DNA of 57,595 nt from a virus. A program made the translations under genes and the position numbers. The stretch is from positions 1 to 57,595 of IMG/VR virus record IMGVR_UViG_3300030248_000076; one strand, written 5' to 3'. Below, in pieces: positions 23,500 to 54,158 of the stretch. Numbering within the stretch: the stretch's first letter is position 1; each line of letters opens with the position of its first letter. Under the pieces are notes generated by a model. That model searched no databases. It was given only the letters and a program-made list of their open reading frames with translations, and was not told the DNA's origin.

Positions 23500-25180
23500 T
23501 TGAGTTCATTCCTTGAAGGAGCTGGCGTCCTTCGTCAGGCGGATTGGCGGCACTTTCGGAGGACTGCGGCGCGAGTGGCACCGATTGGTTTTGCAGCAGA
23601 TCGTCCTTCCCCGAAAGGCCGCCGAATTCATTGAACATGTCATCTGGCTCAACATCCGGTGCATCGTCTGAGAGCCAGTCCAAACCCATAATCGGAGACT
23701 TTTTCACAGCCTCGCGAACCTCTTCAGCGCTGATGGCTTGGATGCTGGCAAGCTGTGTAAGCGTGCCGGCAATGGACTGCGCCGACATGGCATTCTGAGC
23801 TTCACGATCAACGCCGAGCTCGTTGAACTTCACGCTGATCGAGTCATCGAGTTCGCCGAATTCAACAATCTGAATAGCTTTGAGGCACTTCAAGATCGCG
23901 TCTCGGCGAAGCTCTTGCTTCGATTTGATGTAGTCGTAGTAGTTCGTGATGTCGCTTTGCCCGGTGGCGTTAAAGCCGCTCGGGCTGATGCCGAGCAGTT
24001 TTACCGCGGGCGTGCGGTTGATGGCCGCAATCATTTCAAGCGACTGCCGCACCACATCCGTACATCCAGCTAACGACGTCTGTATGTTCGCTACATCTTC
24101 TTCGTCCTTATCGACCGCGAAAACAGAATCATTGTCTCGATAGCGCTGAAGAACAGCCATCTTCTGATCAAGGGTCGCGATGCCGTTCGGGTCACTCATC
24201 AAAGAACTCATATTGGTCTTGTAGACCAGCAGAGAGATCTTGGTGAGCAGATTCGCCGTCGCTACGCGGCAAGAGTTCCAGTGAATGACGTAGTCCCAAA
24301 GGATCTGCGCCTGCGGAATCCCGAGGAAGTTGTAATTCGGCAGCAGCAGTTGCGGCGGCCGATTGTCGACGACGGGAATCAAGCGTGAGGCATGAACCTT
24401 CTTGCCGAGCACCCACCACGATTTCGGCTGCATGTAGTCTTTGCGGAGCGGATCTGTGGAGTTGTATTCGACTGGCGCGCAGTTAATCGGATCAACGACG
24501 ATAAAGCGAAGGGGCGTGTCCTTGCCGAGCTCCGCGCTTTTCACGTTGATAGCGAGCGGAAGTTCTAAGTCCTCCTCATCGCATCCTGTGTCAATGAAGA
24601 TGAAGCAGCCGCCCATGTACCCAGTGAGATCGATGGCGTCATGAAATACCTTTTTGAGATGGTATTTCGTCTCCTGCAAATCGTTCAGCATGTCGACGGT
24701 TTCGCCGTCGGATTCATCGCCGCCGATGATGGTCAGCCATTCACGCGTAATGTCATCGGAGACGGTTGAAATGCATGATCGAATCATGCCGTTCTGGGCA
24801 ATTTGCTGAAGGACGCCGTAACCGATAAAAGAAGTTACGGGATACTGTCCGAGATCAGAAGCGTGCTGAGTAAGCGTGTTGTAGATCGCGTCGTAGTAGC
24901 CGGCTCTGTCACACGCTTCGGCAAGCTTCTCGCGCTCTTTTCCGTCCTTGGGATACCCCAAAGTAAGCGGCGGAGCAAAGTGCTTTTTGACGTCATCGAG
25001 AGATCTCAGCACTTCGCATGTGCGCGGCGGGATGAGCATCGTGCCGGCGCTCATTGACTGAATAGCGCGTTCACGCTGAGCGCGGAACTTTTTGGCGAGC
25101 ATCTTTTCTTGCTCCTCGACCTTGCGAAACGCCTTTTTGCGCTTCTTGTCCGCCGCCTTTTCTTCTTTGGTTTTGCTCAT
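23465..25180 (-). CDS. Portal protein (DUF1073-like)
   Basis: Start MSKTKEEK chosen. 571 aa, downstream of the terminase. Confidence 0.8.
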   Translation of the reverse strand: MSKTKEEKAADKKRKKAFRKVEEQEKMLAKKFRAQRERAIQSMSAGTMLIPPRTCEVLRSLDDVKKHFAPPLTLGYPKDGKEREKLAEACDRAGYYDAIYNTLTQHASDLGQYPVTSFIGYGVLQQIAQNGMIRSCISTVSDDITREWLTIIGGDESDGETVDMLNDLQETKYHLKKVFHDAIDLTGYMGGCFIFIDTGCDEEDLELPLAINVKSAELGKDTPLRFIVVDPINCAPVEYNSTDPLRKDYMQPKSWWVLGKKVHASRLIPVVDNRPPQLLLPNYNFLGIPQAQILWDYVIHWNSCRVATANLLTKISLLVYKTNMSSLMSDPNGIATLDQKMAVLQRYRDNDSVFAVDKDEEDVANIQTSLAGCTDVVRQSLEMIAAINRTPAVKLLGISPSGFNATGQSDITNYYDYIKSKQELRRDAILKCLKAIQIVEFGELDDSISVKFNELGVDREAQNAMSAQSIAGTLTQLASIQAISAEEVREAVKKSPIMGLDWLSDDAPDVEPDDMFNEFGGLSGKDDLLQNQSVPLAPQSSESAANPPDEGRQLLQGMNSNDSKSEDDSSH

Positions 25181-25386
25181 AGGAGCCCCCAGTTTTGGAG
25201 ATGTGCAAGCACATAGCCCCCAGAAAGAACAAATGCCGAGAGTGCGATGCCCGCAGCACTCAACCAAAAAACAACTCTGAAAGCTCGGAAACTTAACGGT
25301 CGGTTGCCGATATCAGTGTTCTCAAGCATTGCGGAGGTCATACGTAACCCTGCTACAAGCCCGCCAATCGCGGTTAAAATATTCAT
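25177..25386 (-). CDS. Small two-TM membrane protein
   Basis: 69-aa hydrophobic ORF between the terL terminator and the portal gene. Confidence 0.5.
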   Translation of the reverse strand: MNILTAIGGLVAGLRMTSAMLENTDIGNRPLSFRAFRVVFWLSAAGIALSAFVLSGGYVLAHLQNWGLL

Positions 25387-25412
25387 GGTTCACCTGTCAT
25401 AGAGGTGGATAC

Positions 25413-25446
25413 GAAAAAGCCCGCGAGAGTTACAGCTCCGCGGGCT
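25413..25446 (-). terminator. Intrinsic terminator after terL
   Basis: Stem agcccgcg/cgcgggct, followed on the minus strand by TTTTTC. Confidence 0.7.
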
Positions 25447-25464
25447 TTGCTTTTGTTGGGCGCT

Positions 25465-28400
25465 TTACCGTAGGCCAAGTGCCGTTAGATTGTTCGGATG
25501 AATTTTTCGAACGGTGCCTCGGCTCATATCAGCCAAAGCCTGACTCATGCTGTCGATTTGATCGTCGTGAGCCCCTGCCGGGAAACTGAGCAGTTCTGGT
25601 ATGAAATCCTTTGCCACCCACGGATAAAGACCTGCCGGCGGAAGAAAGACGTTCTTTGCCTCCCAGAGCGGCGTGACCGCGGCCGCGCGAGCCTCTTTGG
25701 ACTCCTTCGGATTGATTGGGATGAGCCCTGAAACATGCTTTTTCAGCGTCGCGATAACAGCGGCGCCGTTTGCCTTTTCTTCCACGAGCTTTCGAAGTAC
25801 TCGCGGCCACTTTTCGGCGCAAGCAACGAACTGTTCCACCGTTTTTACAAAGTCCCACTGACCTCGATACTGATCAAGCAAGTAGAAGTTCGCGCCTTTG
25901 CGCCCCCACACCTGCCCAACGACATAGTCAGATCGTTCGGAACCCTTGAACGTCATATCCCACGAAATACACGTGGCATCGAACGTCTTTGGAAGCGTTG
26001 CGCTGTCCCAATGCTGAATCCAATCTTCTTTAAAGAGTCCGCCGCCGTCGGGCACTGGATGCTGCTGATAAAGCGCAGCCCAGTCACGGGAGCCGACCTG
26101 CTTTTGAATGCGAAGCAGCGCATTGAGGTCATAGCGTTCGGGGTGCAAAGCCTCGCCGGCCTTACGGTGCGGTTCGTCGTGTTCGGCAATGGCGGGATAG
26201 TTGATGACGCGCCACTGCTCGCCTTCGCCGGATGCTGCACGGTCAAGCAAGCGACCGACCAGATCATCGCAATTGTGAGTAGGCATCAAGCTTTTACCAA
26301 CTAGATAGATGCCGTCAACTGCGCTAGTTGTTATGCACCTACCCCACCCAGCTTCTTTAGAACTGGCCTTCCTGAAATGTACTTGCCGTTCTTTTGCTCG
26401 AATCGCTTTGCACCGCTTGTACTCCACCTTGCACGGTATGTCTACTGTTGGAGAAAAGCTGAAACGGTTGCAATCGTAATTTCGTTCATATCCGTCTTTT
26501 GCAATCGTCCCTTTGCGGTTAACAACCTCTCTGTTGTTGCAAAGCATACCGAGCGACGAAACTAAATCCTTTACGTCGGAGTACAGCCGTTCGTCGCTGT
26601 TTGCGAATCGCTGAATGTTGTTGGTTTTATCGCCGTCAGAATCAATAAGGCCAGCCAATAACGCCAAACGGTCCTCTATAGACGCGTGTAAGTAGCATCT
26701 AGGTATGTGCTTGTTAAACAGAACACCTAGTTTGACCAACTTTCCTCGAAGTCCTTGATGTCGATACCGATAGCAGTAATTGCCTACCTTATCCGTATAT
26801 CGCGTAAACGAATACGGCGTACTTTCGCAATGTGCCGTATAAGCATGTCCGCATCGAATATCGGGGCCGCTTTTCGAACCATCCCCCAGCCACAAACCAA
26901 ACCAATACGGATCAATTGGGAGGGGTTCGTTTTCTCCAAAATCTAGCGGATCAGGCCGAGGGAGAGTTCTCTGCCTGTCGTCGAGCAGGTTTCCGGCCTC
27001 TTTCAGAACGTAATTATGGGTCGGCCTGCTTTTGACCGGCCATAAATGCTTTGATCCGCAAATAACCGTTTCCGTTCGCGTTTCGACGGCAACATCACAC
27101 CAAACCGGTTCGCAAACGTGCGTAACCTCGACCGGCCTTCCGTCCATCCCGAAAACCCTATCGCCTACCTGAAGGTCGCCATGTCGTTTCCATCCTGCAA
27201 GCGTAAGTACGGGCGTATCGTCCTTAATGGGGTGCCAGCGTGTGCACATCACGATCACGCCGCCACCAGGAGATAAGCGCGTATATGCCGTCGACGTGTA
27301 CCAGTCCCAAAGCGCTTCTCGAATCGTCGCAGAATTCGCGTCGCGTCGATCTTTAATTGCGTCGTCGATAACCAAGCAATCAGCGCCCATGCCTGTAATG
27401 CCTCCGCCGACACCGGCGGCGCGGTAGGCGCCCTTATGCCCAACGATTTCAAAGAGCTCTGCGGTTCGAATGAATGAGCCGAAAGAGGTCTTTACGTTCT
27501 TTGAGTTGAGCGATGTTTCAGGGAAGATCTCGGCGTACTTTGGATCGTCGATCTTGCGCTGTACGTCACGCGAGAAACGTTGCGTCAGATCTGCTGAATA
27601 CGACGTCGCAATGATTTGAAGGTCTGGATACAGCCCAAATGCATACGCCGGAAAAGATCGAGAAACGATTTCGCTATTGTGCGTAGCAACAAAGGTTTTA
27701 CCTATTACATATAGACCATCTTCTGAATCAACTTGAATACAGTTGCCTATCTTTGGACTCTCGAGCTGCTTGACCGCAACGATCGCGTGCCTCTTTTCCT
27801 TCCGCACTCTGGTCGTTTTTTTACGCATCAAACGACACGGTATTGACTTTGTCGGGAAAAAACTAACCGTGTATACAGAGCGCTTTCCAACGATGCCGCT
27901 AGTACTCGTGGTCGGGTCAATCTTTCTAATATGAGCCGTTTCTCCGATTAAACGAATAACCTCAGCAACATCAAGAGCAAGCTTTTCTGATACGGTTGAA
28001 AAAACATATCTGCCATTGACAAACGTGCCATCGGTGTCCATCAGCCCTGCGATTAGTTCCCTCAAATTGCTTTCTGAGTCGAACTTGTATTCGTCGGGCA
28101 CATATTTCCCGTCGAACAATCTCAATCGCTTCATGTCCGCAGAAAACTTATTCCGACGCCGTGGTACTCCGCTCGCGAATGAAAACGTAACAACACCTGT
28201 AGTTGAGTGCTCCCATTCCCCCGTTATCGGCACCCCCAACTTTTCAAATGCATCCTTAACAACCATGGCATCAAGAGGTGTCATATTTATTCTTGGCGAA
28301 CTAGATGTACCATCTCCAAGCCATACACCAAGGCAATACGGCGGCAGGATGTGTTGGACCTCTTCAAACTGTAAGGGGTTTACTCTATCAATTTGATACA

Positions 28401-28974
28401 GGTATCTTCCGCCGCGCTTCCCCATTAGCCCCGTTGTTAAGCTGATGGGCTTCCCTGTTCTGGGGGAAGGTTCTATCAAGCATCTTGTTTCGACGGTTTT
28501 GTACTTTGCCTGCGGACGAGAATAAATTGTCCATTCATGATCTAAATGAACGGCAAACCTTTCGCCTGTCGACACCTCTACCTCATGAGAGGCAATGTTT
28601 TTAGGGCCTATTGCAATAACTCGAACCGGCTTCCCTGACGGAGAAAAAACTTCGTCTCCCACCTTAAGCTCTCCGTGGGTTCTCCAGCCTTTCGTCGTCA
28701 ATACCGGCGTGCTGTCTGCGCACAGCTTCCCACTTCTGGGCGGCATGCAGATGATGAGCCTCGGCGATTTCTTATCTGCGATGTCTTGCAGAAAACCGTC
28801 AAGCTCTTCGCAGATTTCGCGATGTACCCACCCCATTTGGTATCCGGGAGTGGTTTCAAGAACAAAATTCGAAAGACTTTGACGCGCTGCGCGGATTCTA
28901 AGCTCATGACGCGCAGCGAGAATCAGAGCCCTATCGATCTTCTCCTTCATTTTCGGGGAACTCCATACGAGCAA
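25465..28974 (-). CDS. terL: Terminase large subunit precursor containing two inteins (mature extein about 499 aa)
   Basis: Walker A PPRSGK|S, Walker B CLVIDD, TRWH|CDDL, and a C-terminal nuclease ending AGAHDDQIDSMSQAL. The more likely start is MKEKIDR at 28950, which has a GGAG RBS. Confidence 0.9.
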   Translation of the reverse strand: MLVWSSPKMKEKIDRALILAARHELRIRAARQSLSNFVLETTPGYQMGWVHREICEELDGFLQDIADKKSPRLIICMPPRSGKLCADSTPVLTTKGWRTHGELKVGDEVFSPSGKPVRVIAIGPKNIASHEVEVSTGERFAVHLDHEWTIYSRPQAKYKTVETRCLIEPSPRTGKPISLTTGLMGKRGGRYLYQIDRVNPLQFEEVQHILPPYCLGVWLGDGTSSSPRINMTPLDAMVVKDAFEKLGVPITGEWEHSTTGVVTFSFASGVPRRRNKFSADMKRLRLFDGKYVPDEYKFDSESNLRELIAGLMDTDGTFVNGRYVFSTVSEKLALDVAEVIRLIGETAHIRKIDPTTSTSGIVGKRSVYTVSFFPTKSIPCRLMRKKTTRVRKEKRHAIVAVKQLESPKIGNCIQVDSEDGLYVIGKTFVATHNSEIVSRSFPAYAFGLYPDLQIIATSYSADLTQRFSRDVQRKIDDPKYAEIFPETSLNSKNVKTSFGSFIRTAELFEIVGHKGAYRAAGVGGGITGMGADCLVIDDAIKDRRDANSATIREALWDWYTSTAYTRLSPGGGVIVMCTRWHPIKDDTPVLTLAGWKRHGDLQVGDRVFGMDGRPVEVTHVCEPVWCDVAVETRTETVICGSKHLWPVKSRPTHNYVLKEAGNLLDDRQRTLPRPDPLDFGENEPLPIDPYWFGLWLGDGSKSGPDIRCGHAYTAHCESTPYSFTRYTDKVGNYCYRYRHQGLRGKLVKLGVLFNKHIPRCYLHASIEDRLALLAGLIDSDGDKTNNIQRFANSDERLYSDVKDLVSSLGMLCNNREVVNRKGTIAKDGYERNYDCNRFSFSPTVDIPCKVEYKRCKAIRAKERQVHFRKASSKEAGWGRCITTSAVDGIYLVGKSLMPTHNCDDLVGRLLDRAASGEGEQWRVINYPAIAEHDEPHRKAGEALHPERYDLNALLRIQKQVGSRDWAALYQQHPVPDGGGLFKEDWIQHWDSATLPKTFDATCISWDMTFKGSERSDYVVGQVWGRKGANFYLLDQYRGQWDFVKTVEQFVACAEKWPRVLRKLVEEKANGAAVIATLKKHVSGLIPINPKESKEARAAAVTPLWEAKNVFLPPAGLYPWVAKDFIPELLSFPAGAHDDQIDSMSQALADMSRGTVRKIHPNNLTALGLR
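26272..27231 (-). mobile_element. Intein 2 (320 aa, residues 582-901) with a LAGLIDADG endonuclease, inserted in the TRWH/DDL motif
   Basis: PIKDDTPVLTLAGWKRHGDLQVGDRV...KHLW...YWFGLWLGDGS...LLAGLIDSDGD...GRCITT...MPTHN|C. Confidence 0.85.
27676..28725 (-). mobile_element. Intein 1 (350 aa, residues 84-433) with a LAGLIDADG endonuclease, inserted in the Walker A P-loop
   Basis: LCADSTPVLTTKGWRTHGELKVGDEV...DHEW...YCLGVWLGDGT...LIAGLMDTDGT...GNCIQV...VATHN|S. Confidence 0.85.
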
Positions 28975-29485
28975 TTTCTAGCAGTTCTTCGTTTGAAAGC
29001 GAGGTGACCTGCTTCGTTTCGATCTTGACTGCGCCGCCATCGGCACCGGTGACGGCAACGCGTCGGCGGTCACCGTAGTTTCGGTCGTCGCGGATGGCTG
29101 CCTCTCGATTCAGCTCTTGAACCAAGAGCTTCTGAGCCTCAACATACCCTCGCGGAAGATCTTTAACCGGCTCACCCAGAGCGTCAGTGATTTCACCTCG
29201 TAACGCCTTAACCGCCGTTTTCGCAGTTTCTTGCGCAATGCCGAGCGCTTTTTCGCGATACAGAGCGGCGCTTTCTTCGCGCGCGCGCGCGGACTGAATG
29301 CAAAATTCTTGATTGTTATCCTTCCACCGGCCAAGTGTTGAGGCGTCTGGCATTCCTTTTTGAGAGCAAATTTCCCTCTCAGACAAGCCCTCACGAATCA
29401 AGTCGCAAATCTTTTCGGCCAGCTCGGGTGTGTACTTAGTTGGTCTCCCCACCTTGCGGGGAGCAGACTTCTTTTGAGCAGCCAT
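28931..29485 (-). CDS. terS: Terminase small subunit
   Basis: Start MAAQKKSAPRKVGRPTKYTPELAEKICDLIREG is an HTH typical of terS. Overlaps the terL start. Confidence 0.8.
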   Translation of the reverse strand: MAAQKKSAPRKVGRPTKYTPELAEKICDLIREGLSEREICSQKGMPDASTLGRWKDNNQEFCIQSARAREESAALYREKALGIAQETAKTAVKALRGEITDALGEPVKDLPRGYVEAQKLLVQELNREAAIRDDRNYGDRRRVAVTGADGGAVKIETKQVTSLSNEELLEIARMEFPENEGEDR

Positions 29486-29516
29486 ACGAACCTCGCAAAA
29501 AAACGGGTGATAAAAA

Positions 29517-30098
29517 TTAAGCAGCCAAACCGACGATGCCAATAGCACCAAAGACAATTGCGCACAAGATGAGAATGTTTATGCGGCGAAGTGTTCTGCC
29601 TCGCCGGTCAAGCGTCAACTTTGCGAGTTTCCGGGCAGAGTCGAAATTTTTGAGAGCGTCACGATAAATGCTCAGGGTATCTTCCTGAGTTCCGTGAGCA
29701 GACAAAAACCACTCCGAATAGCTCTTTACTGCGCCGACCATAACGTTTGAATTGCCCATCGCCATCACGGATAGGAATAGAGCCGAGGCAAAAAGACCCG
29801 CTGAAATAGCCGGACACAGGATTTCAACCAAGCTGTTGATGCCGAAAAGTGTCCATGAGTAGACGTGAGCTACAATCATTGCCGCGGAGAACGCCTGATA
29901 GAAAGCGAGTTTTGATCGTTGCTCTGGGTACAGAGCAAAGATTCTCGTCAAGTCTTTCTCGGCCATATCAAGAAGTACCTGAGCAACTTTGAGCTGTTCG
30001 GGATAAGGATCGATTGGCGAGAATGGATCTTTTGACACGTGCGAATACTCCGGTATGAGAAGCCCGCAAGAGCTGAAAAGAAAAAAGCCCGCGCTCAT
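29517..30098 (-). CDS. Polytopic membrane protein of unknown function (cargo between the Q-like gene and terS)
   Basis: Several hydrophobic helices. The tracked start lies inside a terminator hairpin, so the real start may be internal (for example Met at 29966). Confidence 0.5.
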   Translation of the reverse strand: MSAGFFLFSSCGLLIPEYSHVSKDPFSPIDPYPEQLKVAQVLLDMAEKDLTRIFALYPEQRSKLAFYQAFSAAMIVAHVYSWTLFGINSLVEILCPAISAGLFASALFLSVMAMGNSNVMVGAVKSYSEWFLSAHGTQEDTLSIYRDALKNFDSARKLAKLTLDRRGRTLRRINILILCAIVFGAIGIVGLAA

Positions 30099-35820: not shown

Positions 35821-36522
35821 ATGAGTACACTTGAAGAACGGCTTAATGAGGCATTCGCCCAAGCAAAAGAAAGCAATCCGAAGATTTCGAAGTCAGGCTT
35901 GGCTCGTGCTTGTGACGTTCGTCCGTCAAGCGTTACGGATTGGTTTAACGGCCGGACCAGAGAAATGACGGCCATAAACTCCCAAAAGGCTGCGCTTTAT
36001 CTTGGTGTGTCTTCGGCGTGGTTATCGACCGGTAAAGGATCGATGAAGTCTTCAAGCGTCACGGTGTTTGATGAAGGAGACGCGCTTGACAATGATGAAT
36101 ACGTCGAGATTCCAGAATATTCAGTAACCTGCTCGGCTGGGCCGGGACGTGAAGTGATTTTTGAAGAAGTCTGTGATTCAAACCCCGCTCGCTATCGCAG
36201 GTCTTGGTTTCAGTCCAGGGGCATTAATCCAGATCACTGCAAACGCTTTAAGGTGCACGGGGACTCGATGGAGCCGTTGCTTTGGGATGGAGACACAATC
36301 CTTGTCGACTGCGGCGTCAAGGATGTCTTAGATGGGAAAATTTATGCGTTCATGATCCGCGGTTCTATGCGCGTCAAGATTCTGCATCCGCTTTTGCGCG
36401 GTGGGTATCTCGTGCAATCGCTTAACCCCGACATCCCTGATGAAACGTTGGATGATGGTGATTTAGACGCTTTTTTCTTAATCGGACGGGTCCGCGACCG
36501 CAGCGGATCAAGCATGTTCTAA
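35821..36522 (+). CDS. CI-like repressor (HTH_XRE plus S24 LexA-type autopeptidase)
   Basis: N-terminal HTH, a C-terminal GDSMEP serine motif and an RVK lysine motif. GGAGG RBS. Confidence 0.9.
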   Translation: MSTLEERLNEAFAQAKESNPKISKSGLARACDVRPSSVTDWFNGRTREMTAINSQKAALYLGVSSAWLSTGKGSMKSSSVTVFDEGDALDNDEYVEIPEYSVTCSAGPGREVIFEEVCDSNPARYRRSWFQSRGINPDHCKRFKVHGDSMEPLLWDGDTILVDCGVKDVLDGKIYAFMIRGSMRVKILHPLLRGGYLVQSLNPDIPDETLDDGDLDAFFLIGRVRDRSGSSMF

Positions 36523-37783: not shown

Positions 37784-38626
37784 ATGTCTCAGATCATTGC
37801 CGCCAACGCCTTCAAAGTCGTCGAAGGTCGCCCCGTAACGTCCAGCCGAATCGTCGCAGAATACTTCGGCAAGCAACACCATCATGTAGTTCGTGACATT
37901 CGAACTCTTATCTCGCAGAAGCCTGATTTAGAACGAAACGCCAATTTTGGCGAATGCTCTGAAACGATCAATCTTGCGAATGGAGCTACCCGACAGGTCC
38001 CTTTCTTTTGGATGGATCGAAAGGGATTCTCGCTCCTTGCGATGGGCTTCACTGGCGCCAAAGCGCTCGACTTCAAGTGCGCGTTCTACGATCAGTTCGA
38101 ACGCATGGAGGAGTCGCTGCGAGCACCGTCTGACCAGTCTGCGCTCATCACGACTACAGAGCAGTACGAAATCCGCAAGACTATCAAGTCACGTGCTAAG
38201 AACTCATCGGTTCACTATCAGACGGTCTACAACGCTCTTTACGACTACTTCAAGATCGCGAGCTACAAAGACCTGCGGCACGACCAGATGAAGGCTGCAC
38301 TCACGCTCATCGAAACCTGCACACTTAAGCCGCAGCTTCCGGCGCCGACGCTTGCGGAAGGCTCAGTCATCTTGTCCGCTCAAGAGGCCGAAGCCCTGCT
38401 CACATTCATCTATTACGTGAGATTTCTCTTTGCTGACGTCTTTGGAAAGCTTGACGGCCTTTTGCGCATAGTTGATTCGCCTTTGGCCGGAAGCTTTTGG
38501 GACGCTTTCCATGAAGTTTCTTGGGGTCGCATCCTAGAAATTCTTGCCAAGCACGGGCACGACATCAACGACATGCCCTGCTATCAGCACTGGTTGGCAC
38601 AGCAACCAAAGCGCAAAGCCGCGTAA
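37784..38626 (+). CDS. Rha-family phage regulatory protein (N-domain) fused to the C-domain shared with the Bro protein at 45297
   Basis: N-terminus VEGRPVTSSRIVAEYFGKQHHHVVRDIR is Rha-like. The C-terminal 161 aa are repeated at 45630-46115. Confidence 0.8.
   Translation: MSQIIAANAFKVVEGRPVTSSRIVAEYFGKQHHHVVRDIRTLISQKPDLERNANFGECSETINLANGATRQVPFFWMDRKGFSLLAMGFTGAKALDFKCAFYDQFERMEESLRAPSDQSALITTTEQYEIRKTIKSRAKNSSVHYQTVYNALYDYFKIASYKDLRHDQMKAALTLIETCTLKPQLPAPTLAEGSVILSAQEAEALLTFIYYVRFLFADVFGKLDGLLRIVDSPLAGSFWDAFHEVSWGRILEILAKHGHDINDMPCYQHWLAQQPKRKAA
38141..38626 (+). repeat. 486-bp direct repeat, copy 1 (shared antirepressor C-domain)
   Basis: Aligns without gaps to 45630-46115, including one 65-bp identical run. 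Confidence 0.9.
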
Positions 38627-43183: not shown

Positions 43184-43567
43184 ATGAAAAGGGATTGGGA
43201 CATTGTCAGGGAAGTGCTTGAGGCCGTGGAGAGCGGTGATGTTGCTGGGTATATCCGTTCTGAAGAATTCCGAACGCGATTTCCAGCCAACCCGCCGGCC
43301 GACTTCTTGGGCCACGTCGAAATCTTGATAGATGCAGGGATCATCAAAAACGCGTGTGTGAAAAGAAACCCCGACGGAGGGTTCGGGTTTTGGGACTTTC
43401 GCGGTGCGTTTGTCACGATGCAAGGACACGACCTGTTAGATGCTATGCGCAACAAAGAGTTGTGGCAACGCGTGAAATCGAAATCGCTTCACACTGGAAT
43501 TTCGTTGTCTTGGGAATTTATCAAGGCAGCCATCCCTGTTGTAATCACAGAGGTTTTAACCAAATGA
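43184..43567 (+). CDS. DUF2513-like winged-helix protein
   Basis: MKRDWDIVREVLEAVE...TMQGHDLLDAMRNKELW pattern. Confidence 0.6.
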   Translation: MKRDWDIVREVLEAVESGDVAGYIRSEEFRTRFPANPPADFLGHVEILIDAGIIKNACVKRNPDGGFGFWDFRGAFVTMQGHDLLDAMRNKELWQRVKSKSLHTGISLSWEFIKAAIPVVITEVLTK

Positions 43568-43809
43568 AAACCGAAAGACTTATCGCGCTGAGCGAATCCG
43601 AATCTGCACTTCTGTCTAGGCTGTCCATTTTGCCGGTCAAGATTCTTAGCCAGATCCCGCCCGATGTTCTCAAAAAAGCAACTGAGAAACTGATCGAGAA
43701 TGGGTTGTTGGAGCCTGAAGACATCCCGACCCAAGAGGATATGGAAGCCTTGGACAGGCTTGCCGACAGAATCGGAATCCCCTCACTGAAGGACGTCATG
43801 ATGAATTGA
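43564..43809 (+). CDS. Hypothetical protein
   Basis: 81 aa, ATGA-coupled to the previous gene. Confidence 0.5.
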   Translation: MKTERLIALSESESALLSRLSILPVKILSQIPPDVLKKATEKLIENGLLEPEDIPTQEDMEALDRLADRIGIPSLKDVMMN

Positions 43810-43839
43810 ACCATCAAGCGCAGGGGCGTTTATGAACAA

Positions 43840-44352
43840 TCAAATCCTTCTAACAACTTTTTCGGGTATAAGTCGTTTACGGATAACCCGCTGCCTAAAC
43901 AAAAGACGGTCAACTAACCGAGGATAGACGTGTACAGTGAGAGACTTTAACGGCTTCCTAGGGTTGATTTTGAAACAGATCGCTGGCCGGAATGGGGCAA
44001 ACTCACCATTCTTCTTATAAGCAACCGCATTTTCTTCGGATGGAATAATTTTTGGCGCATATACAAATTTACGCCATACGAGAGCCTCATTGTCTACTGG
44101 TGGGAGGCCGAACTCTGCTGAGGTGAAGGTTTCTGAAACGTCGCAACCAGAAACGCCAATCTTGAAAATTTCGTAATCCTCAGATGCAGGGATAAAAGTT
44201 AGAGTCAACTTATAGAAATTTGATGTTGGCGATGGATCATCAAGCCTCAATTTTATTTCTGGAGTCTGTCGAAGCATTTTTTGAGCATACATAAGGTAAG
44301 CAGTTATTCCAGTAAATACGGCTGTAGCTATAGTAGATATGACAACGAACAT
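43840..44352 (-). CDS. Opposite-strand cargo gene: N-terminally anchored membrane protein, unknown function
   Basis: 170 aa. The region is visibly AT-richer, has one N-terminal TM, and is antisense to the early operon. Confidence 0.55.
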   Translation of the reverse strand: MFVVISTIATAVFTGITAYLMYAQKMLRQTPEIKLRLDDPSPTSNFYKLTLTFIPASEDYEIFKIGVSGCDVSETFTSAEFGLPPVDNEALVWRKFVYAPKIIPSEENAVAYKKNGEFAPFRPAICFKINPRKPLKSLTVHVYPRLVDRLLFRQRVIRKRLIPEKVVRRI

Positions 44353-44477
44353 GTGTTCTCGGTGAGTGGTAATGGTGAGTGAAGTGAATTTACTATCTTA
44401 CCGAGGACACTACCTTTTTGACACGCGCCTCCAGATCGAGTACTCTTCCCCTGTCAGCGCGAAAGCGGCGCTGATCG

Positions 44478-44498
44478 GGCCGCAATAGCGGCTTTTTT
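44478..44498 (+). terminator. Intrinsic terminator
   Basis: Stem gccgc/gcggc, loop aata, then TTTTTT. Confidence 0.6.
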
Positions 44499-44522
44499 CG
44501 TATTTGCCTCTAGGGGAATGAA

Positions 44523-44954
44523 ATGAAGCGAGATCTTAAGACCCTCGTGACGCTGCTTGAAAGAATCGAAGACGATAACCTTGAGCAATTCATTGATCAC
44601 CCCCTTGGAGAAGACATTGACGAGCGCAAACTTGGGAAGCTCATCTCCAACAAGCGGCAAATCTTACTTGGTCACCTCCTTCTGCTTAAGGAGGCTGGGT
44701 ACACGGGACACTTGACTGTTACGGTCAACGAGGGTGAGGACGGCCTAGAGCTTTGTTGTTCGATCCCCCGCCTAACCATGAAGGGACACGACTTGCTTGC
44801 AATGCTTCGTTCAAAAACTCTTTATCAGCGAATGAAAGAGATTCTTGATGGCACCGGTCTGCCCCTTACATCGGATACGCTGGACTTGATTCAACATGAG
44901 GCCTCTGACGAGTTGATTCGAGAGTGGGCATCTAAGAAAAAACTCCAATCTTGA
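44523..44954 (+). CDS. DUF2513-like winged-helix protein (second paralogue)
   Basis: MKRDLKTLVTLLERIE...TMKGHDLLAMLRSKTLY. Confidence 0.6.
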   Translation: MKRDLKTLVTLLERIEDDNLEQFIDHPLGEDIDERKLGKLISNKRQILLGHLLLLKEAGYTGHLTVTVNEGEDGLELCCSIPRLTMKGHDLLAMLRSKTLYQRMKEILDGTGLPLTSDTLDLIQHEASDELIREWASKKKLQS

Positions 44955-45296: not shown

Positions 45297-46115
45297 ATGC
45301 AAGCTTTGAGCTTCTCATTCGAGAACATGGCCGTGCGCACGCTCGGCACACCTGAACACCCTCTTTTTGTCGCCCTTGACGTCTGTAGCGCTCTCGGTTA
45401 CGCGAAAGCGCGCAACGCAGTCGCTCAGCACGTCGACCCCGAAGACCTCATCAAGTCCGATATCGACACAAACGGTGGCCGCCAGACGATCAACTGCGTC
45501 AACGAGTCCGGTCTCTACGCCCTGATCTTTGGCTCCAAGCTCGAATCCGCAAAGCGCTTCAAGCGCTGGGTCACTTCTGAAGTTCTGCCGGCGATTCGTC
45601 GCACGGGACGATACGAATCTGCTCAGTCCGCGCTCATCACGACTACAGAGCAGTACGAGATCCGAAAGGCTATCAAATCGCGCGCTAAGAACTCATCGGT
45701 TCACTACCAGACGGTCTACAACGCTCTTTACGACTACTTCAAGATCGCGAGCTACAAAGACCTGCGGCACGATCAGATGAAAGCTGCACTCGCGCTCATC
45801 GAAACCTGCACGCTTAAACCGCAGCTTTCGGCGCCGACAATCCCAGAAGGGTCGATCATCTTGTCTGATAAGGATGCTGAAGCCCTGCTCACTTTCATCT
45901 ATTACGTGAGGTTTTTGTTTTTGAACGTCTTTAGCAAGATCTATGGCATTTTGCGAATTATGGATTCGCCCTTTGCCGGAAAGTTTTGGGACGCCTTTAA
46001 TGAAGTCCCTTGGTGGCGCATCCTAGAGATTCTTGCCAAGCACGGACACGACATTAACGACATGCAATGCTATCAGCACTGGTTGGCACAGCAACCAAAG
46101 CGCACGGCCGCATAA
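45297..46115 (+). CDS. Bro-N domain antirepressor-type protein with the shared C-domain
   Basis: N-terminal FVALDVCSALGY...ESGLYALIFGSKLESAKRFKRWVTSEVLPAIRRTG is Bro-N-like. Confidence 0.85.
   Translation: MQALSFSFENMAVRTLGTPEHPLFVALDVCSALGYAKARNAVAQHVDPEDLIKSDIDTNGGRQTINCVNESGLYALIFGSKLESAKRFKRWVTSEVLPAIRRTGRYESAQSALITTTEQYEIRKAIKSRAKNSSVHYQTVYNALYDYFKIASYKDLRHDQMKAALALIETCTLKPQLSAPTIPEGSIILSDKDAEALLTFIYYVRFLFLNVFSKIYGILRIMDSPFAGKFWDAFNEVPWWRILEILAKHGHDINDMQCYQHWLAQQPKRTAA
45630..46115 (+). repeat. 486-bp direct repeat, copy 2
   Basis: See 38141-38626. Confidence 0.9.
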
Positions 46116-52625: not shown

Positions 52626-52672
52626 CGCCCCCGGGAGTCCTGATGATCAGCTCCCGGGGGCGAAGTTTTTTT
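52626..52672 (+). terminator. Strong intrinsic terminator ending the early operon
   Basis: 12-bp stem cgcccccgggag/ctcccgggggcg plus 4 inner pairs, then TTTTTTT. Confidence 0.85.
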
Positions 52673-52679
52673 GCGGATA

Positions 52680-52936
52680 GTGGGGCAAAGTGTGGGGCAA
52701 TTTTCTGAGACGCCCCGCTCGCCCAATGAATGCGGGAAAGTCCTCATACTCAGATGTTCTAAACCCCACCCCGAGAGCAGTCCGCGATTCATCCGTGAAT
52801 CCCCCGCACTTCCCCGCGCGGGCGCCGATATACTCGGAAGAGCCCGCGCACATACCGCAGATCGGCCGGTTTTGCCCCGCAACTCGTCGCGTCTTCGTGT
52901 GGGGCAATTGGTGGGGCAAAGTTCTCTCTGCCCCAC
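52680..52936. promoter_or_regulatory. attP region with arm-type repeats GTGGGGCAA
   Basis: Direct copies at 52680, 52692, 52899 and 52911. Inverted near-copies at 52872-52880 and 52928-52936. Confidence 0.6.
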
Positions 52937-52940
52937 TCTT

Positions 52941-54158
52941 ATGCCTCCCGCTCAAAAAGTCACCGCGAAGTCCGCCCTCACGCTCCCGGATGGACGCTAC
53001 CTCGTCGAGCCGCAGCTCTATCTCGTCGTCCGCCGCGGCGGACTCTCCCGGACCTACTTCATCCGCTACACCCTAGACGGCCGCCGGCGCGATTTCAGCC
53101 TTGGAAGTGCAAAGGACAAAACCCTCGCGGTCGTCAAGGCCGAAGCCGCGCAGGTCCGATCGCTCCTCGCGCGCGGGATCGACCCGAAGGACGCCCGCGA
53201 CCGGGAGCGCGCCGAACGCGCCCGTCCACTCGTCCCGACCTTTGCAGAGTACGTCCCCGGGGCACTTGATGAGCTGAAGCATTTGAGACACTGGGCGGAG
53301 CGCTCCGCATGGACGTATCAGGCGCTCGCGAACATCGCGCTCCGCGATGCGGGATTCGCGTCCCGCCGCCTTGACGAAATCACGGTCGAGAACGTCAAGG
53401 ACTTCCTCACAGGCGTTTGGGATCAGTACAAAAACGCGCACCACTTGCGCGGGCTTTTGGAGATGATCTTCACGCTCGCGCGCCGCGACGGCTTCATGAC
53501 GATCCCGAATCCCGCGCTATGGCGTGGGAACCTCGACGCCTACCTGCCCCTCAAGACGAAAGAGCGCCGCCCAGAGCACTTTCACGCGATCTCACTTGAC
53601 GCGCTCCGGGACGCGCTCCGGGTGCTCATCACGGGGGAGTGTCAGAGCGATCCGGCAATCATCTTCCTCGCCCTCACCGCATGCCGGCGTGATGAGGTGC
53701 TTTTCATGCGATGGAGCGAAGTGGACTTCGATACGCGCACCTTCTCCGTGCCGCCCGAGCGCCGAAAGGACCGTCGGCCCGAGCCGCACGTCGTGCCGCT
53801 CTCAGATCAAGCCCTTGCGCTCCTCGCGCACTGGAAAAAAACTCGGGCCTCACTGCTTTGCGACCGGCGATTTGCCTCCAGGCGTCTAAAAAAAGTCTCA
53901 GGAGACGAAGACGCCACTCTGCACGGAATGCGATCAACTTTTCGTGACTGGTGCGCAGAGACCGGAAAGGATCCGATCCTTGCTGAGAAGTCGCTTATGC
54001 ATGCGACCGGCAACGCCGTCCAGCAGGCATATCAGAGAAGCGACCTGCTTGAGCAGCGACGTCCGCTCATGCAGGCGTGGGCAGACACGATTCTGCCCAT
54101 GGATACGCTAAAAGAAGTTCTGCCAGAAAGTATGAATACTCCGACGGAAAAGTATTGA
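52941..54158 (+). CDS. int: Tyrosine integrase, P4-like (DUF4102 N-domain)
   Basis: Start MPPAQKV. DGRYLV...LYLVVRRGGLSRTYFIRY N-domain, and C-terminal R...HGMRSTFRDW...Y catalytic motifs. Confidence 0.9.
   Translation: MPPAQKVTAKSALTLPDGRYLVEPQLYLVVRRGGLSRTYFIRYTLDGRRRDFSLGSAKDKTLAVVKAEAAQVRSLLARGIDPKDARDRERAERARPLVPTFAEYVPGALDELKHLRHWAERSAWTYQALANIALRDAGFASRRLDEITVENVKDFLTGVWDQYKNAHHLRGLLEMIFTLARRDGFMTIPNPALWRGNLDAYLPLKTKERRPEHFHAISLDALRDALRVLITGECQSDPAIIFLALTACRRDEVLFMRWSEVDFDTRTFSVPPERRKDRRPEPHVVPLSDQALALLAHWKKTRASLLCDRRFASRRLKKVSGDEDATLHGMRSTFRDWCAETGKDPILAEKSLMHATGNAVQQAYQRSDLLEQRRPLMQAWADTILPMDTLKEVLPESMNTPTEKY

Follow-up and report, generated by a model that had tools for sequence, protein, structure and literature searches.

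Results

Two class 3-type inteins in one terminase gene

The terL gene of the virus recorded in IMG/VR as IMGVR_UViG_3300030248_000076 encodes a large terminase subunit (TerL) that carries two in-frame inserts, I1 (350 amino acids, aa) and I2 (320 aa). Both are very probably mobile HINT-LAGLIDADG inteins of class 3 type, residing together in a single packaging ATPase. The window analyzed is the whole stretch of 57,595 nucleotides, positions 1 to 57,595 of that record, and its features are listed in Table 1. Residues are numbered as in an earlier note on this sequence, from the first TTG codon (28974) of a minus-strand open reading frame (ORF) at 25465–28974. The ORF of 1169 aa described in that note exists. 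However, the start used by the homologues and the deposited protein is the ATG at 28950 (MKEKIDRAL...), most likely the actual one, so that the precursor is taken as 1161 aa and the spliced product as 491 aa.

Pfam matched the ORF to Terminase_6N (1.4e-14), Terminase_6C (3.8e-12), LAGLIDADG_3 (1.7e-12, two stretches) and Hom_end (1.3e-5); the Pfam Hint models gave matches to the ORF below threshold only. The PF03237 and PF17289 matches, together with 4812 homologues, identify a Terminase_6-type TerL. The gene is flanked by a small terminase subunit (TerS, Sf6_terminase) gene upstream and a portal gene downstream. In alignment, the TRWH of the window falls on a TRWH in gp6 of mycobacteriophage Chandler that Kelley et al. 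assigned to the ATPase coupling (C) motif, and the TRWH of the window is called the C-motif on the basis of this homology and that assignment. A profile of the extein matched no PDB sequence at E ≤ 0.01.

Intein blocks A, B, F and G, the histidine at block B position 10 (B:10), the C-terminal His-Asn and a Ser or Cys at position +1 are present in both inserts. The motifs read by the earlier note, among them two LAGLIDADG blocks per insert, were all found again at the same residues. Cys412 lies exactly 21 residues ahead of the terminal Asn of I1, and Cys880 lies exactly 21 residues ahead of that of I2. Each insert contains a double-motif LAGLIDADG domain, a putative endonuclease, in which both motifs retain the acidic residues of GDG/DxDG. 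These probably correspond to the catalytic Asp218 and Asp326 of PI-SceI. The second LAGLIDADG region of I2 also yields a weak phmmer match to PI-SceI residues 291–353.

Table 1 Features of the terL gene, its two inteins and other genes of the window. A slash marks an intein junction or insertion point.
Feature	Coordinates	Strand	Residues	Remarks
terL	25465..28950	-		Precursor 1161 aa from ATG 28950; stop codon 25465-25467
N-extein	28726..28950	-	9-83	Alignment with intein-free homologues; Walker A at its end
Walker A PPRSGK	28726-28743	-		Within N-extein
I1	27676..28725	-	Leu84-Asn433	350 aa; between Walker A Lys83 and Ser434; LCADSTPVLT...ATHN
I1 block A	28684..28725	-		LCADSTPVLTTKGW; residue 1 is Leu, a non-nucleophile
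I1 block B, HEW	28531..28539	-	146-148	His146 (B:10), Glu, Trp148 (B:12)
I1 first LAGLIDADG motif	28306..28338	-		YCLGVWLGDGT; Pfam LAGLIDADG_3
I1 second LAGLIDADG motif	28024..28056	-		LIAGLMDTDGT; Pfam LAGLIDADG_3, aa 304-368
I1 block F position 4	27739..27741	-	Cys412	Predicted initiating nucleophile; aligns with the RC(V/I)EVD Cys of 6bs8/6rix; invariant in relatives
I1 C-terminal junction	27673..27684	-	Thr431-Ser434	Thr431 (G:5), His432, Asn433, Ser434 (+1); Ser434 is the Walker A Ser
I1 insertion site, intein-free L006-type allele				ATGCCACCGCGTTCCGGAAAA/TCGGAAATTGTTTC
Middle extein	27232..27675	-	434-581	Pfam Terminase_6N spans aa 435-584
Walker B CLVIDD	27361-27378	-		Within middle extein
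CTRWH	27232-27246	-		Within middle extein
I2	26272..27231	-	Pro582-Asn901	320 aa; between TRWH and Cys902; PIKDDTPVLT...PTHN
I2 block A	27190..27231	-		PIKDDTPVLTLAGW; residue 1 is Pro
I2 block B, HLW	27040..27048	-	643-645	His643 (B:10), Leu, Trp645 (B:12)
I2 first LAGLIDADG motif	26875..26907	-		YWFGLWLGDGS; Pfam and motif position
I2 second LAGLIDADG motif	26629..26661	-		LLAGLIDSDGD; Pfam Hom_end and LAGLIDADG_3
I2 block F position 4	26335..26337	-	Cys880	Predicted initiating nucleophile; aligns with catalytic Cys of 6bs8/6rix
I2 C-terminal junction	26269..26280	-	Thr899-Cys902	Thr899, His900, Asn901, Cys902 (+1); allele alignments
I2 insertion site, intein-free L006-type allele				TGCACACGGTGGCAC/ATGGATGATCTGGTC
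C-extein	25468..26271	-	902-1169	Includes Terminase_6C nuclease domain
CI-like repressor	35821-36519	+		HTH_3 and Peptidase_S24
Tyrosine integrase	52671-54155	+
Rha regulator	37784-38623	+
Bro-N regulator	45297-46112	+

Junctions defined by natural alleles

The 4812 homologues were retrieved with the in-silico spliced sequence, both inserts removed, as the query. They include intein-free TerLs of 490–492 aa (P0001, P0003, P0005 and P0006) that are 85–97% identical to the spliced sequence; the 499-aa spliced sequence and the 492-aa P0001 share 97% identity. Among alleles whose exteins are 93–98% identical, some lack both inserts and others have just I1 or just I2. I1 occurs as the only insert in P0004 and P0026 and is missing in P0001 and P0129, and I2 is carried by P0129 (I2 only, from a cluster look-up), P0042 and P0047 and is missing in P0001 and P0004. 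Word-indexed searches with the inteins as queries missed the TerL cluster of the window; the extein search and the cluster look-up supplied the same-site relatives.

The protein alignments open gaps exactly at GK/.../SEIV and at TRWH/.../XDDL, where X, the +1 position of the I2 site in intein-free alleles, is Met, Leu, Thr or Cys. Alignment of the DNA of four alleles gives exact gaps of 350 and 320 codons, and no other gap placement retains both the terminal His-Asn and the extein sequence. Because the gaps fix the junctions as GK/L...THN/S and TRWH/P...THN/C, residue 1 is Leu in I1 and Pro in I2. The alignment of the 499-aa spliced TerL with intein-free homologues, which the earlier note had proposed as a check, thus bears out both of its junctions.

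P0047 carries a 136-aa mini-intein without endonuclease at the C-motif site, and P0151 carries a 163-aa counterpart at the P-loop site. These mini-inteins are a degenerate stage of the homing cycle, seen in both lineages.

Class 3 signature, homology and fold

Class 3 inteins have been defined (PMC2807308, PMC5050341) and their splicing mechanism described (PMC2807308, PMC5222942, PMC7664689). Among 22 related inteins the block B His (B:10), the Trp at B:12, the Cys at block F position 4 (F:4), the Thr at block G position 5 (G:5), and the terminal His and Asn are all invariant. Residue 1 in these 22 inteins is Leu, Pro, Gln, Glu, Gly or Ala and never Cys, Ser or Thr; Lys was also seen among relatives. 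The Trp-Cys-Thr (W-C-T) signature and the non-nucleophilic first residue pointed out by the earlier note are thereby upheld, and the closest solved structures by sequence are those of class 3 inteins. The +1 residue follows the typical class 3 pattern (Ser or Thr) in I1 (Ser434) and departs from it in I2 (Cys902). From the signature residues, both inteins are predicted to splice by the class 3 mechanism.

The best PDB sequence matches of both inserts in phmmer searches are the class 3 DnaB1 inteins of Msm and Mch (6bs8/6own and 6rix/6riy), with E values against class 3 DnaB inteins of 4e-9 for I1 and 2.6e-7 for I2. In these matches the HQW, RCVEVD and PTHN of the DnaB inteins stand opposite HEW/HLW, NCIQVD/RCITTS and ATHN/PTHN of I1/I2, and the sequences are in register from residue 4–5. 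In a neighbour-joining (NJ) tree of 20 sequences, built without a class 1 outgroup or an InBase set, the inserts group with W-C-T inteins of DnaB and dCTP deaminase that begin with Ala1.

AlphaFold (AF2) models of I1 and I2, built on alignments of the related inteins, have a mean predicted local distance difference test score (pLDDT) of 92.1 and 89.9, and a predicted template modelling score (pTM) of 0.89 and 0.88, respectively. Both inserts are predicted by these models to adopt the HINT fold. PI-SceI ranks first in Foldseek for both models, with query-normalized TM-scores (TMq) of 0.72–0.75. The splicing domain matches class 3 DnaB mini-inteins with target-normalized scores (TMt) of up to 0.85, and the endonuclease domain matches I-DmoI. 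Other Foldseek matches are the Tli and Pho VMA inteins, PI-PfuI and hedgehog Hh-C.

Mobility and selection

The DNA of four alleles was compared, with no intein (L006), I1 only (L007), I2 only (L008) and both inteins (the window). The four phages are near-identical and share the gene order terS, terL, a small ORF, portal and a Mu F-like gene. The I1 DNA of the window and L007 is identical (1050/1050) while their extein DNA is 88.5–96.4% identical, and the I2 DNA of the window and L008 is identical (960/960) while their extein DNA is 88.3–98.0% identical. The shared identity stops 36 and 17 nucleotides beyond I1, and 26 and 33 nucleotides beyond I2; the intein-linked variants are limited to the immediate flanks of the inserts. 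Identical intein DNA in diverged exteins, with short shared flanks, argues for recent endonuclease-mediated homing with short co-conversion tracts, and indicates that I1 and I2 have probably homed into empty alleles.

At the I1 site, five consecutive codons are recoded synonymously from the intein-free to the I1 allele: Arg CGT to AGA, Ser TCC to AGT, Gly GGA to GGG, Lys AAA to AAG and Ser+1 TCG to AGC. This recoding suggests that I1 arrived with its flanks from a distant donor. Relative to L006 and L008, both Ser codons in the recoded positions (28726–28743 and 27673–27675) swap between the TCN and AGY families. At the I2 site the insertion goes with TGC (Cys) in place of ATG (Met) as the +1 codon and with changes at a few nearby sites, which shows that I2 apparently installs its own +1 nucleophile codon as it inserts.

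Selection was assessed by comparing I1 with P0026 and I2 with P0042, both diverged orthologues. The proportion of nonsynonymous differences (pN) is 0.12–0.32 and that of synonymous differences (pS) 0.72–0.92 in both the splicing (Hint) and the endonuclease parts; at these values the synonymous sites are saturated, so that pN and pS are reported instead of a formal dN/dS. The comparison indicates that the splicing and endonuclease parts of both inteins have probably been kept under purifying selection.

Origin of the pair

As paralogues, I1 and I2 align over their full length (E = 3e-41, approximately 28–32% identity). Inteins at the P-loop of other TerLs share 55% identity with I1, and those at the C-motif of other TerLs share 51–54% with I2; the nearest of the latter use Thr+1. 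The NJ tree, in which sampling is limited and biased to relatives of the queries, unites the TerL P-loop and C-motif inteins in a clade with 99% bootstrap that leaves out the DnaB and dCTP-deaminase inteins beginning with Ala1; the C-motif inteins are either sister to those of the P-loop or nested among them, with weak support for which. The low mutual identity, the closer same-site relatives elsewhere and the single-intein alleles suggest that the site switch is ancient and that each intein entered separately. These relationships fit an old site switch within TerL, after which each intein would have homed independently into this gene.

Frequency of the intein family

A profile of I1 and I2 was run against 1.84 billion representative proteins and gave 20,208 matches at E ≤ 1e-3 and 3,299 at E ≤ 1e-30. 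Residue 1 in the best 150 representatives is Leu (55), Gln (34), Ala (33), Pro (20), Glu (12) or another residue. The 184 C-terminal junctions in these 150 proteins have Ser (148), Thr (33) or Cys (3) at +1, and 178 of them end in THN. The insertion site is the P-loop GK in 122 cases and RW(H/S), the I2 site, in five, the latter with Thr+1 or Ser+1. At least two inteins of the family occur in 32 of the 150, a count that leans to multi-intein proteins because their scores add up in the ranking. Eight top matches were checked with Pfam; all eight are Terminase_6-type TerLs, and six carry at least two such inteins. Leu1, Pro1 and double occupancy recur in this survey and are thus ordinary for the family. 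The earlier note had considered two class 3 inteins in one TerL unusual; given these 32 proteins and a published precedent in crAss-like phages, the arrangement is not very unusual. The Cys+1 of I2 and its insertion point just past TRWH appear to be uncommon.

A megablast search with the terL gene found no match among GenBank phages. By tblastn, homologous inserts occur in 450–726 deposited phage genomes at 31–38% full-length identity, none above 60%. No later report of a class 3 intein that carries Cys at +1 was found in the literature after that of Burkholderia vietnamiensis (Bvi) IcmO.

In the library set P0185, P0186, P0193, P0194, P0190 and P0188, several TerLs carry two class 3-type inteins, combining the P-loop with the Walker B region or the P-loop with the C-motif. 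P0185 is a TerL with three inteins, and P0188 is a 1896-aa protein of unknown type with three class 3-type inteins. Two more, unrelated inteins that begin with Cys1 occur in the TerL family (P0016, P0025, P0073, P0085, P0002, P0019, P0091 and P0060). One lies at Walker B (GA(D/E)/C...HN/C; Pfam PF07591 and PF14890). The other lies in the nuclease domain (AHDDQ/CF...VHN/CDAMTQ) and is found in P0002, whose exteins are 93–94% identical to those of the window, and in a Parasutterella prophage. With the Chandler site included, the TerL family of the window has at least five intein insertion points.

Gene context and host

The exact 1161-aa precursor is present on 84 contigs in a public collection (WP_418785897.1-like), from human-gut metagenome assemblies, and is annotated simply as "phage terminase large subunit". 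These contigs include phage-sized ones at high coverage, one of 55 kb at approximately 500x, and also a 470-kb bacterial contig. The GC content is 0.471 in I1 and 0.491 in I2, compared with 0.51–0.56 in the exteins and a window mean of 0.534, placing I1 and I2 within the lowest 1.9% and 7.3%, respectively, of 1-kb windows in the sequence. The AT-richness that the earlier note had perceived by eye is therefore real, though modest in size. No separate or antisense endonuclease gene lies inside the inteins; the antisense or out-of-frame ORFs there (28016–28396, 25735–26304, 28595–28882 and 28675–29007, plus strand; 25953–26267, minus strand) match no Pfam family. Rfam gave no match over 24500–30000, and thus no group I or group II intron appears to be involved. 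The terS ORF (28931–29557, minus strand) overlaps the start of terL by 20 nucleotides.

A CI-like repressor, a tyrosine integrase and the Rha and Bro-N regulators show the window to be a temperate phage or prophage, in which no tRNA gene was detected. A scan of species-representative genome contigs with the full precursor produced 13 pattern matches, none of them a relative. A second contig scan, with the extein alignment, produced relatives at no more than 69% identity, in Sutterella, Parasutterella and Anaerobiospirillum. The nearest TerLs in the species-representative genomes are those of Sutterella and Parasutterella (68–69% identity), so the host is probably a gut member of this group.

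The lowest-GC patch of the window (43300–44900, down to 0.445) holds two DUF2513 ORFs (43184–43564 and 44523–44951, plus strand) and an unassigned ORF (43843–44352, minus strand), and may be a separately acquired module. The I2-only variant L008 has a HicA/HicB toxin-antitoxin pair upstream of terS (1736–2383), a position taken by RusA and neighbouring small ORFs in the window and in the other variants.

Discussion

Proposed splicing and spread

In the mechanism proposed for both inteins, Cys412 of I1 or Cys880 of I2 would attack the peptide bond ahead of Leu84 or Pro582, respectively, to form a thioester branched intermediate. The N-extein would then be transferred to the +1 residue, Ser434 or Cys902. 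Cyclization of the terminal Asn (Asn433 or Asn901) would follow, and an acyl shift would produce the normal peptide bond in PPRSGK-SEIV and TRWH-CDDL. A 491-aa TerL would result, in which the Walker A PPRSGKS and the TRWH-CDDL are both whole. With Walker A split by I1 and TRWH followed by I2, ATP hydrolysis and packaging would require the excision of both inteins. Indirect signs that splicing takes place are the essential role of the gene, the wide occurrence of the identical precursor and a pN far lower than pS. Each intein would spread by endonuclease-driven homing into empty alleles, carrying short flanking extein DNA along, and the flank carried by I2 would include the Cys+1 codon that replaces Met.

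Alternative explanations

Some points weigh against reading I1 and I2 as a pair of mobile class 3-type inteins. The +1 residue of I2 is Cys, in place of the Ser or Thr typical of class 3; the pN and pS comparison was made on saturated synonymous sites; and the window could in principle be a defective prophage. The last point underlies the proposal that one or both inteins are splicing-dead relics and that the 1161-aa ORF yields no active TerL. An integrase and a CI-like repressor do mark the window as a temperate element, and the class 3-like intein Arsp-FB24 Arth_1007 is a documented pseudogene. However, Arth_1007 lacks Cys F:4 while all catalytic residues of I1 and I2 are intact, the ORF runs without interruption, and 84 contigs, high-coverage, phage-sized ones among them, carry the identical protein. 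Moreover, pN is far below pS in both inteins, and identical intein DNA in diverged exteins points to recent transfer among replicating phages. Relic status is therefore highly improbable. It is very unlikely, if somewhat less so, that I2 splices in a class 2-like manner, with Cys902 attacking the N-terminal junction directly and the block F Cys not an obligate first nucleophile. Class 2 KlbA inteins do use direct +1 attack, and Cys+1 is rare in the family of I2 (3/184 C-terminal junctions), but I2 keeps the complete W-C-T triplet and its nearest same-site relatives (51–54% identical) have Thr+1.

Still less credible is the view of I1 as an ordinary intein of class 1, beginning at Cys85 and leaving Leu84 in the spliced TerL (GKL-SEIV), the arrangement that the earlier note had named as fatal to its own reading of I1. 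Intein-free alleles with 97% extein identity read GK/SEIV without the Leu, and a retained Leu would break the GKS of Walker A. A Cys does stand at insert position 2 (LCADS...), and "LC" is a frequent beginning in relatives (15 of the Leu1 inteins), yet position 2 varies among Cys, Val, Leu and Ile in related TerL P-loop inteins. The ALALDTP of Msm DnaB1, a class 3 intein, aligns in register with residues 1–7 of I1, and the block F residue is Cys rather than the usual Asp of class 1. Cys85 was rejected as residue 1 on the intein-free junctions and the variable position 2. The pair might also stem from a recent ectopic duplication inside this gene, I1 having been copied to the C-motif site or the reverse, as would agree with the spread within the gene suggested by the earlier note. 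I1 and I2 are full-length paralogues in a single, strongly supported clade of TerL inteins, but they are just 28–32% identical to each other, each has closer kin at the same site in other TerLs, and each stands alone in sister alleles with its own co-converted flanks. Such a duplication is thus scarcely probable.

Comparison with known inteins

Class 3 inteins in phage TerL proteins, mostly in ATPase P-loops, have been known since 2010, when they were noted in the paper that defined the class (PMC2807308). The class 3 LAGLIDADG inteins of actinobacteriophage TerLs have been surveyed twice, by Kelley et al. 2016 (TerL1-c, -d and -e) and by Gosselin et al. 2025. I1 and I2 share the W-C-T residues, His B:10 and the terminal His-Asn with the class 3 members mycobacteriophage Bethlehem DnaB, Msm/Mch DnaB1 (6bs8/6rix), Dra Snf2 and Catera gp206, and they also share with the class its phage origin and ATPase hosts. 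The Bethlehem DnaB intein, the prototype of the class, begins with Pro as does I2, and the Cys of Msm DnaB1 lies 21 residues ahead of the terminal Asn as in I1 and I2. In contrast, the identity of I1 and I2 to the solved class 3 mini-inteins is 22–29% over the splicing domain, and the host protein and insertion sites differ. The actinobacteriophage TerL inteins resemble I1 and I2 in host protein, in insertion at an ATPase motif and in joining a class 3 splicing domain to a LAGLIDADG endonuclease; the architecture of the Gordonia phage APunk TerL intein (GK/LVAH...HEW...RCVEVD...PTHN/S) is that of I1. The window differs from them in having two such inteins in a Terminase_6-type TerL of a gut phage that is probably proteobacterial. 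Homologous, unclassified inserts are present in TerLs of Bacteroides phage B124-14, Porphyromonas and Gordonia phages.

The TerL of Chandler, gp6, is homologous to that of the window (30% identity, E = 4e-37) and is interrupted at the same TRWH motif by a C-motif intein, TerL6-f, that was shown to splice. However, TerL6-f is of class 1 type (CMTGDTPVL...SHN/T), has no recognizable relation to I2 and is inserted at MILIQ/TRWH, four residues upstream of the TRWH/C site of I2. Bvi IcmO is the one characterized class 3 exception with Cys+1. Like I2, it has the W-C-T triplet, no N-terminal nucleophile and Cys+1, and with Cys+1 both branched intermediates would be thioesters. With 142 aa, Bvi IcmO is a mini-intein and lies in the IcmO gene of a plasmid, whereas I2 has 320 aa, bears an endonuclease and lies in TerL, with same-site relatives that use Thr+1 or Ser+1. 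The M. smegmatis DnaB is also an essential ATPase with two inteins, but only one of them is class 3, whereas I1 and I2 are both of class 3 type and paralogous. A TerL of Delta-group crAss-like phages with two Hint-Hop inteins is the published two-intein precedent; the class of those inteins was not stated.

Implications

Class 3 LAGLIDADG inteins in TerL are thus known already, and what is distinctive here is the Cys+1, a site beside the known C-motif site and a clear population-level record of homing. The case is a clean example from nature and introduces no new principle. A more far-reaching view, which we consider unlikely, is that I2 belongs to a TerL C-motif class 3 lineage with Cys, Thr or Ser at +1 and brings its own Cys+1, and that the double intein is a redox-gated packaging switch instead of a pure parasite. 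Redox dependence has been reported for M. smegmatis DnaB1, an intein of class 3. If the switch were real, maturation of TerL would need two internal catalytic cysteines and the Cys+1, a total of three thioester/thiol steps, and packaging could be redox-gated in an anaerobic gut host.

With I1 and I2 read as two mobile class 3-type inteins, a widespread human-gut temperate phage carries a paralogous pair in one essential enzyme. Since all four occupancy states are on public record and diverged host alleles carry the same intein DNA, gut viromes could be used to follow homing, co-conversion and the loss of inteins. The 3299 representatives at E ≤ 1e-30 point to thousands of unannotated class 3-like inteins in the library. 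I2 would constitute a second, endonuclease-bearing lineage of the rare class 3 Cys+1 type, and together with its same-site Thr+1 and Ser+1 relatives it would offer a natural series that bears on the tuning of the +1 nucleophile in splicing of class 3.

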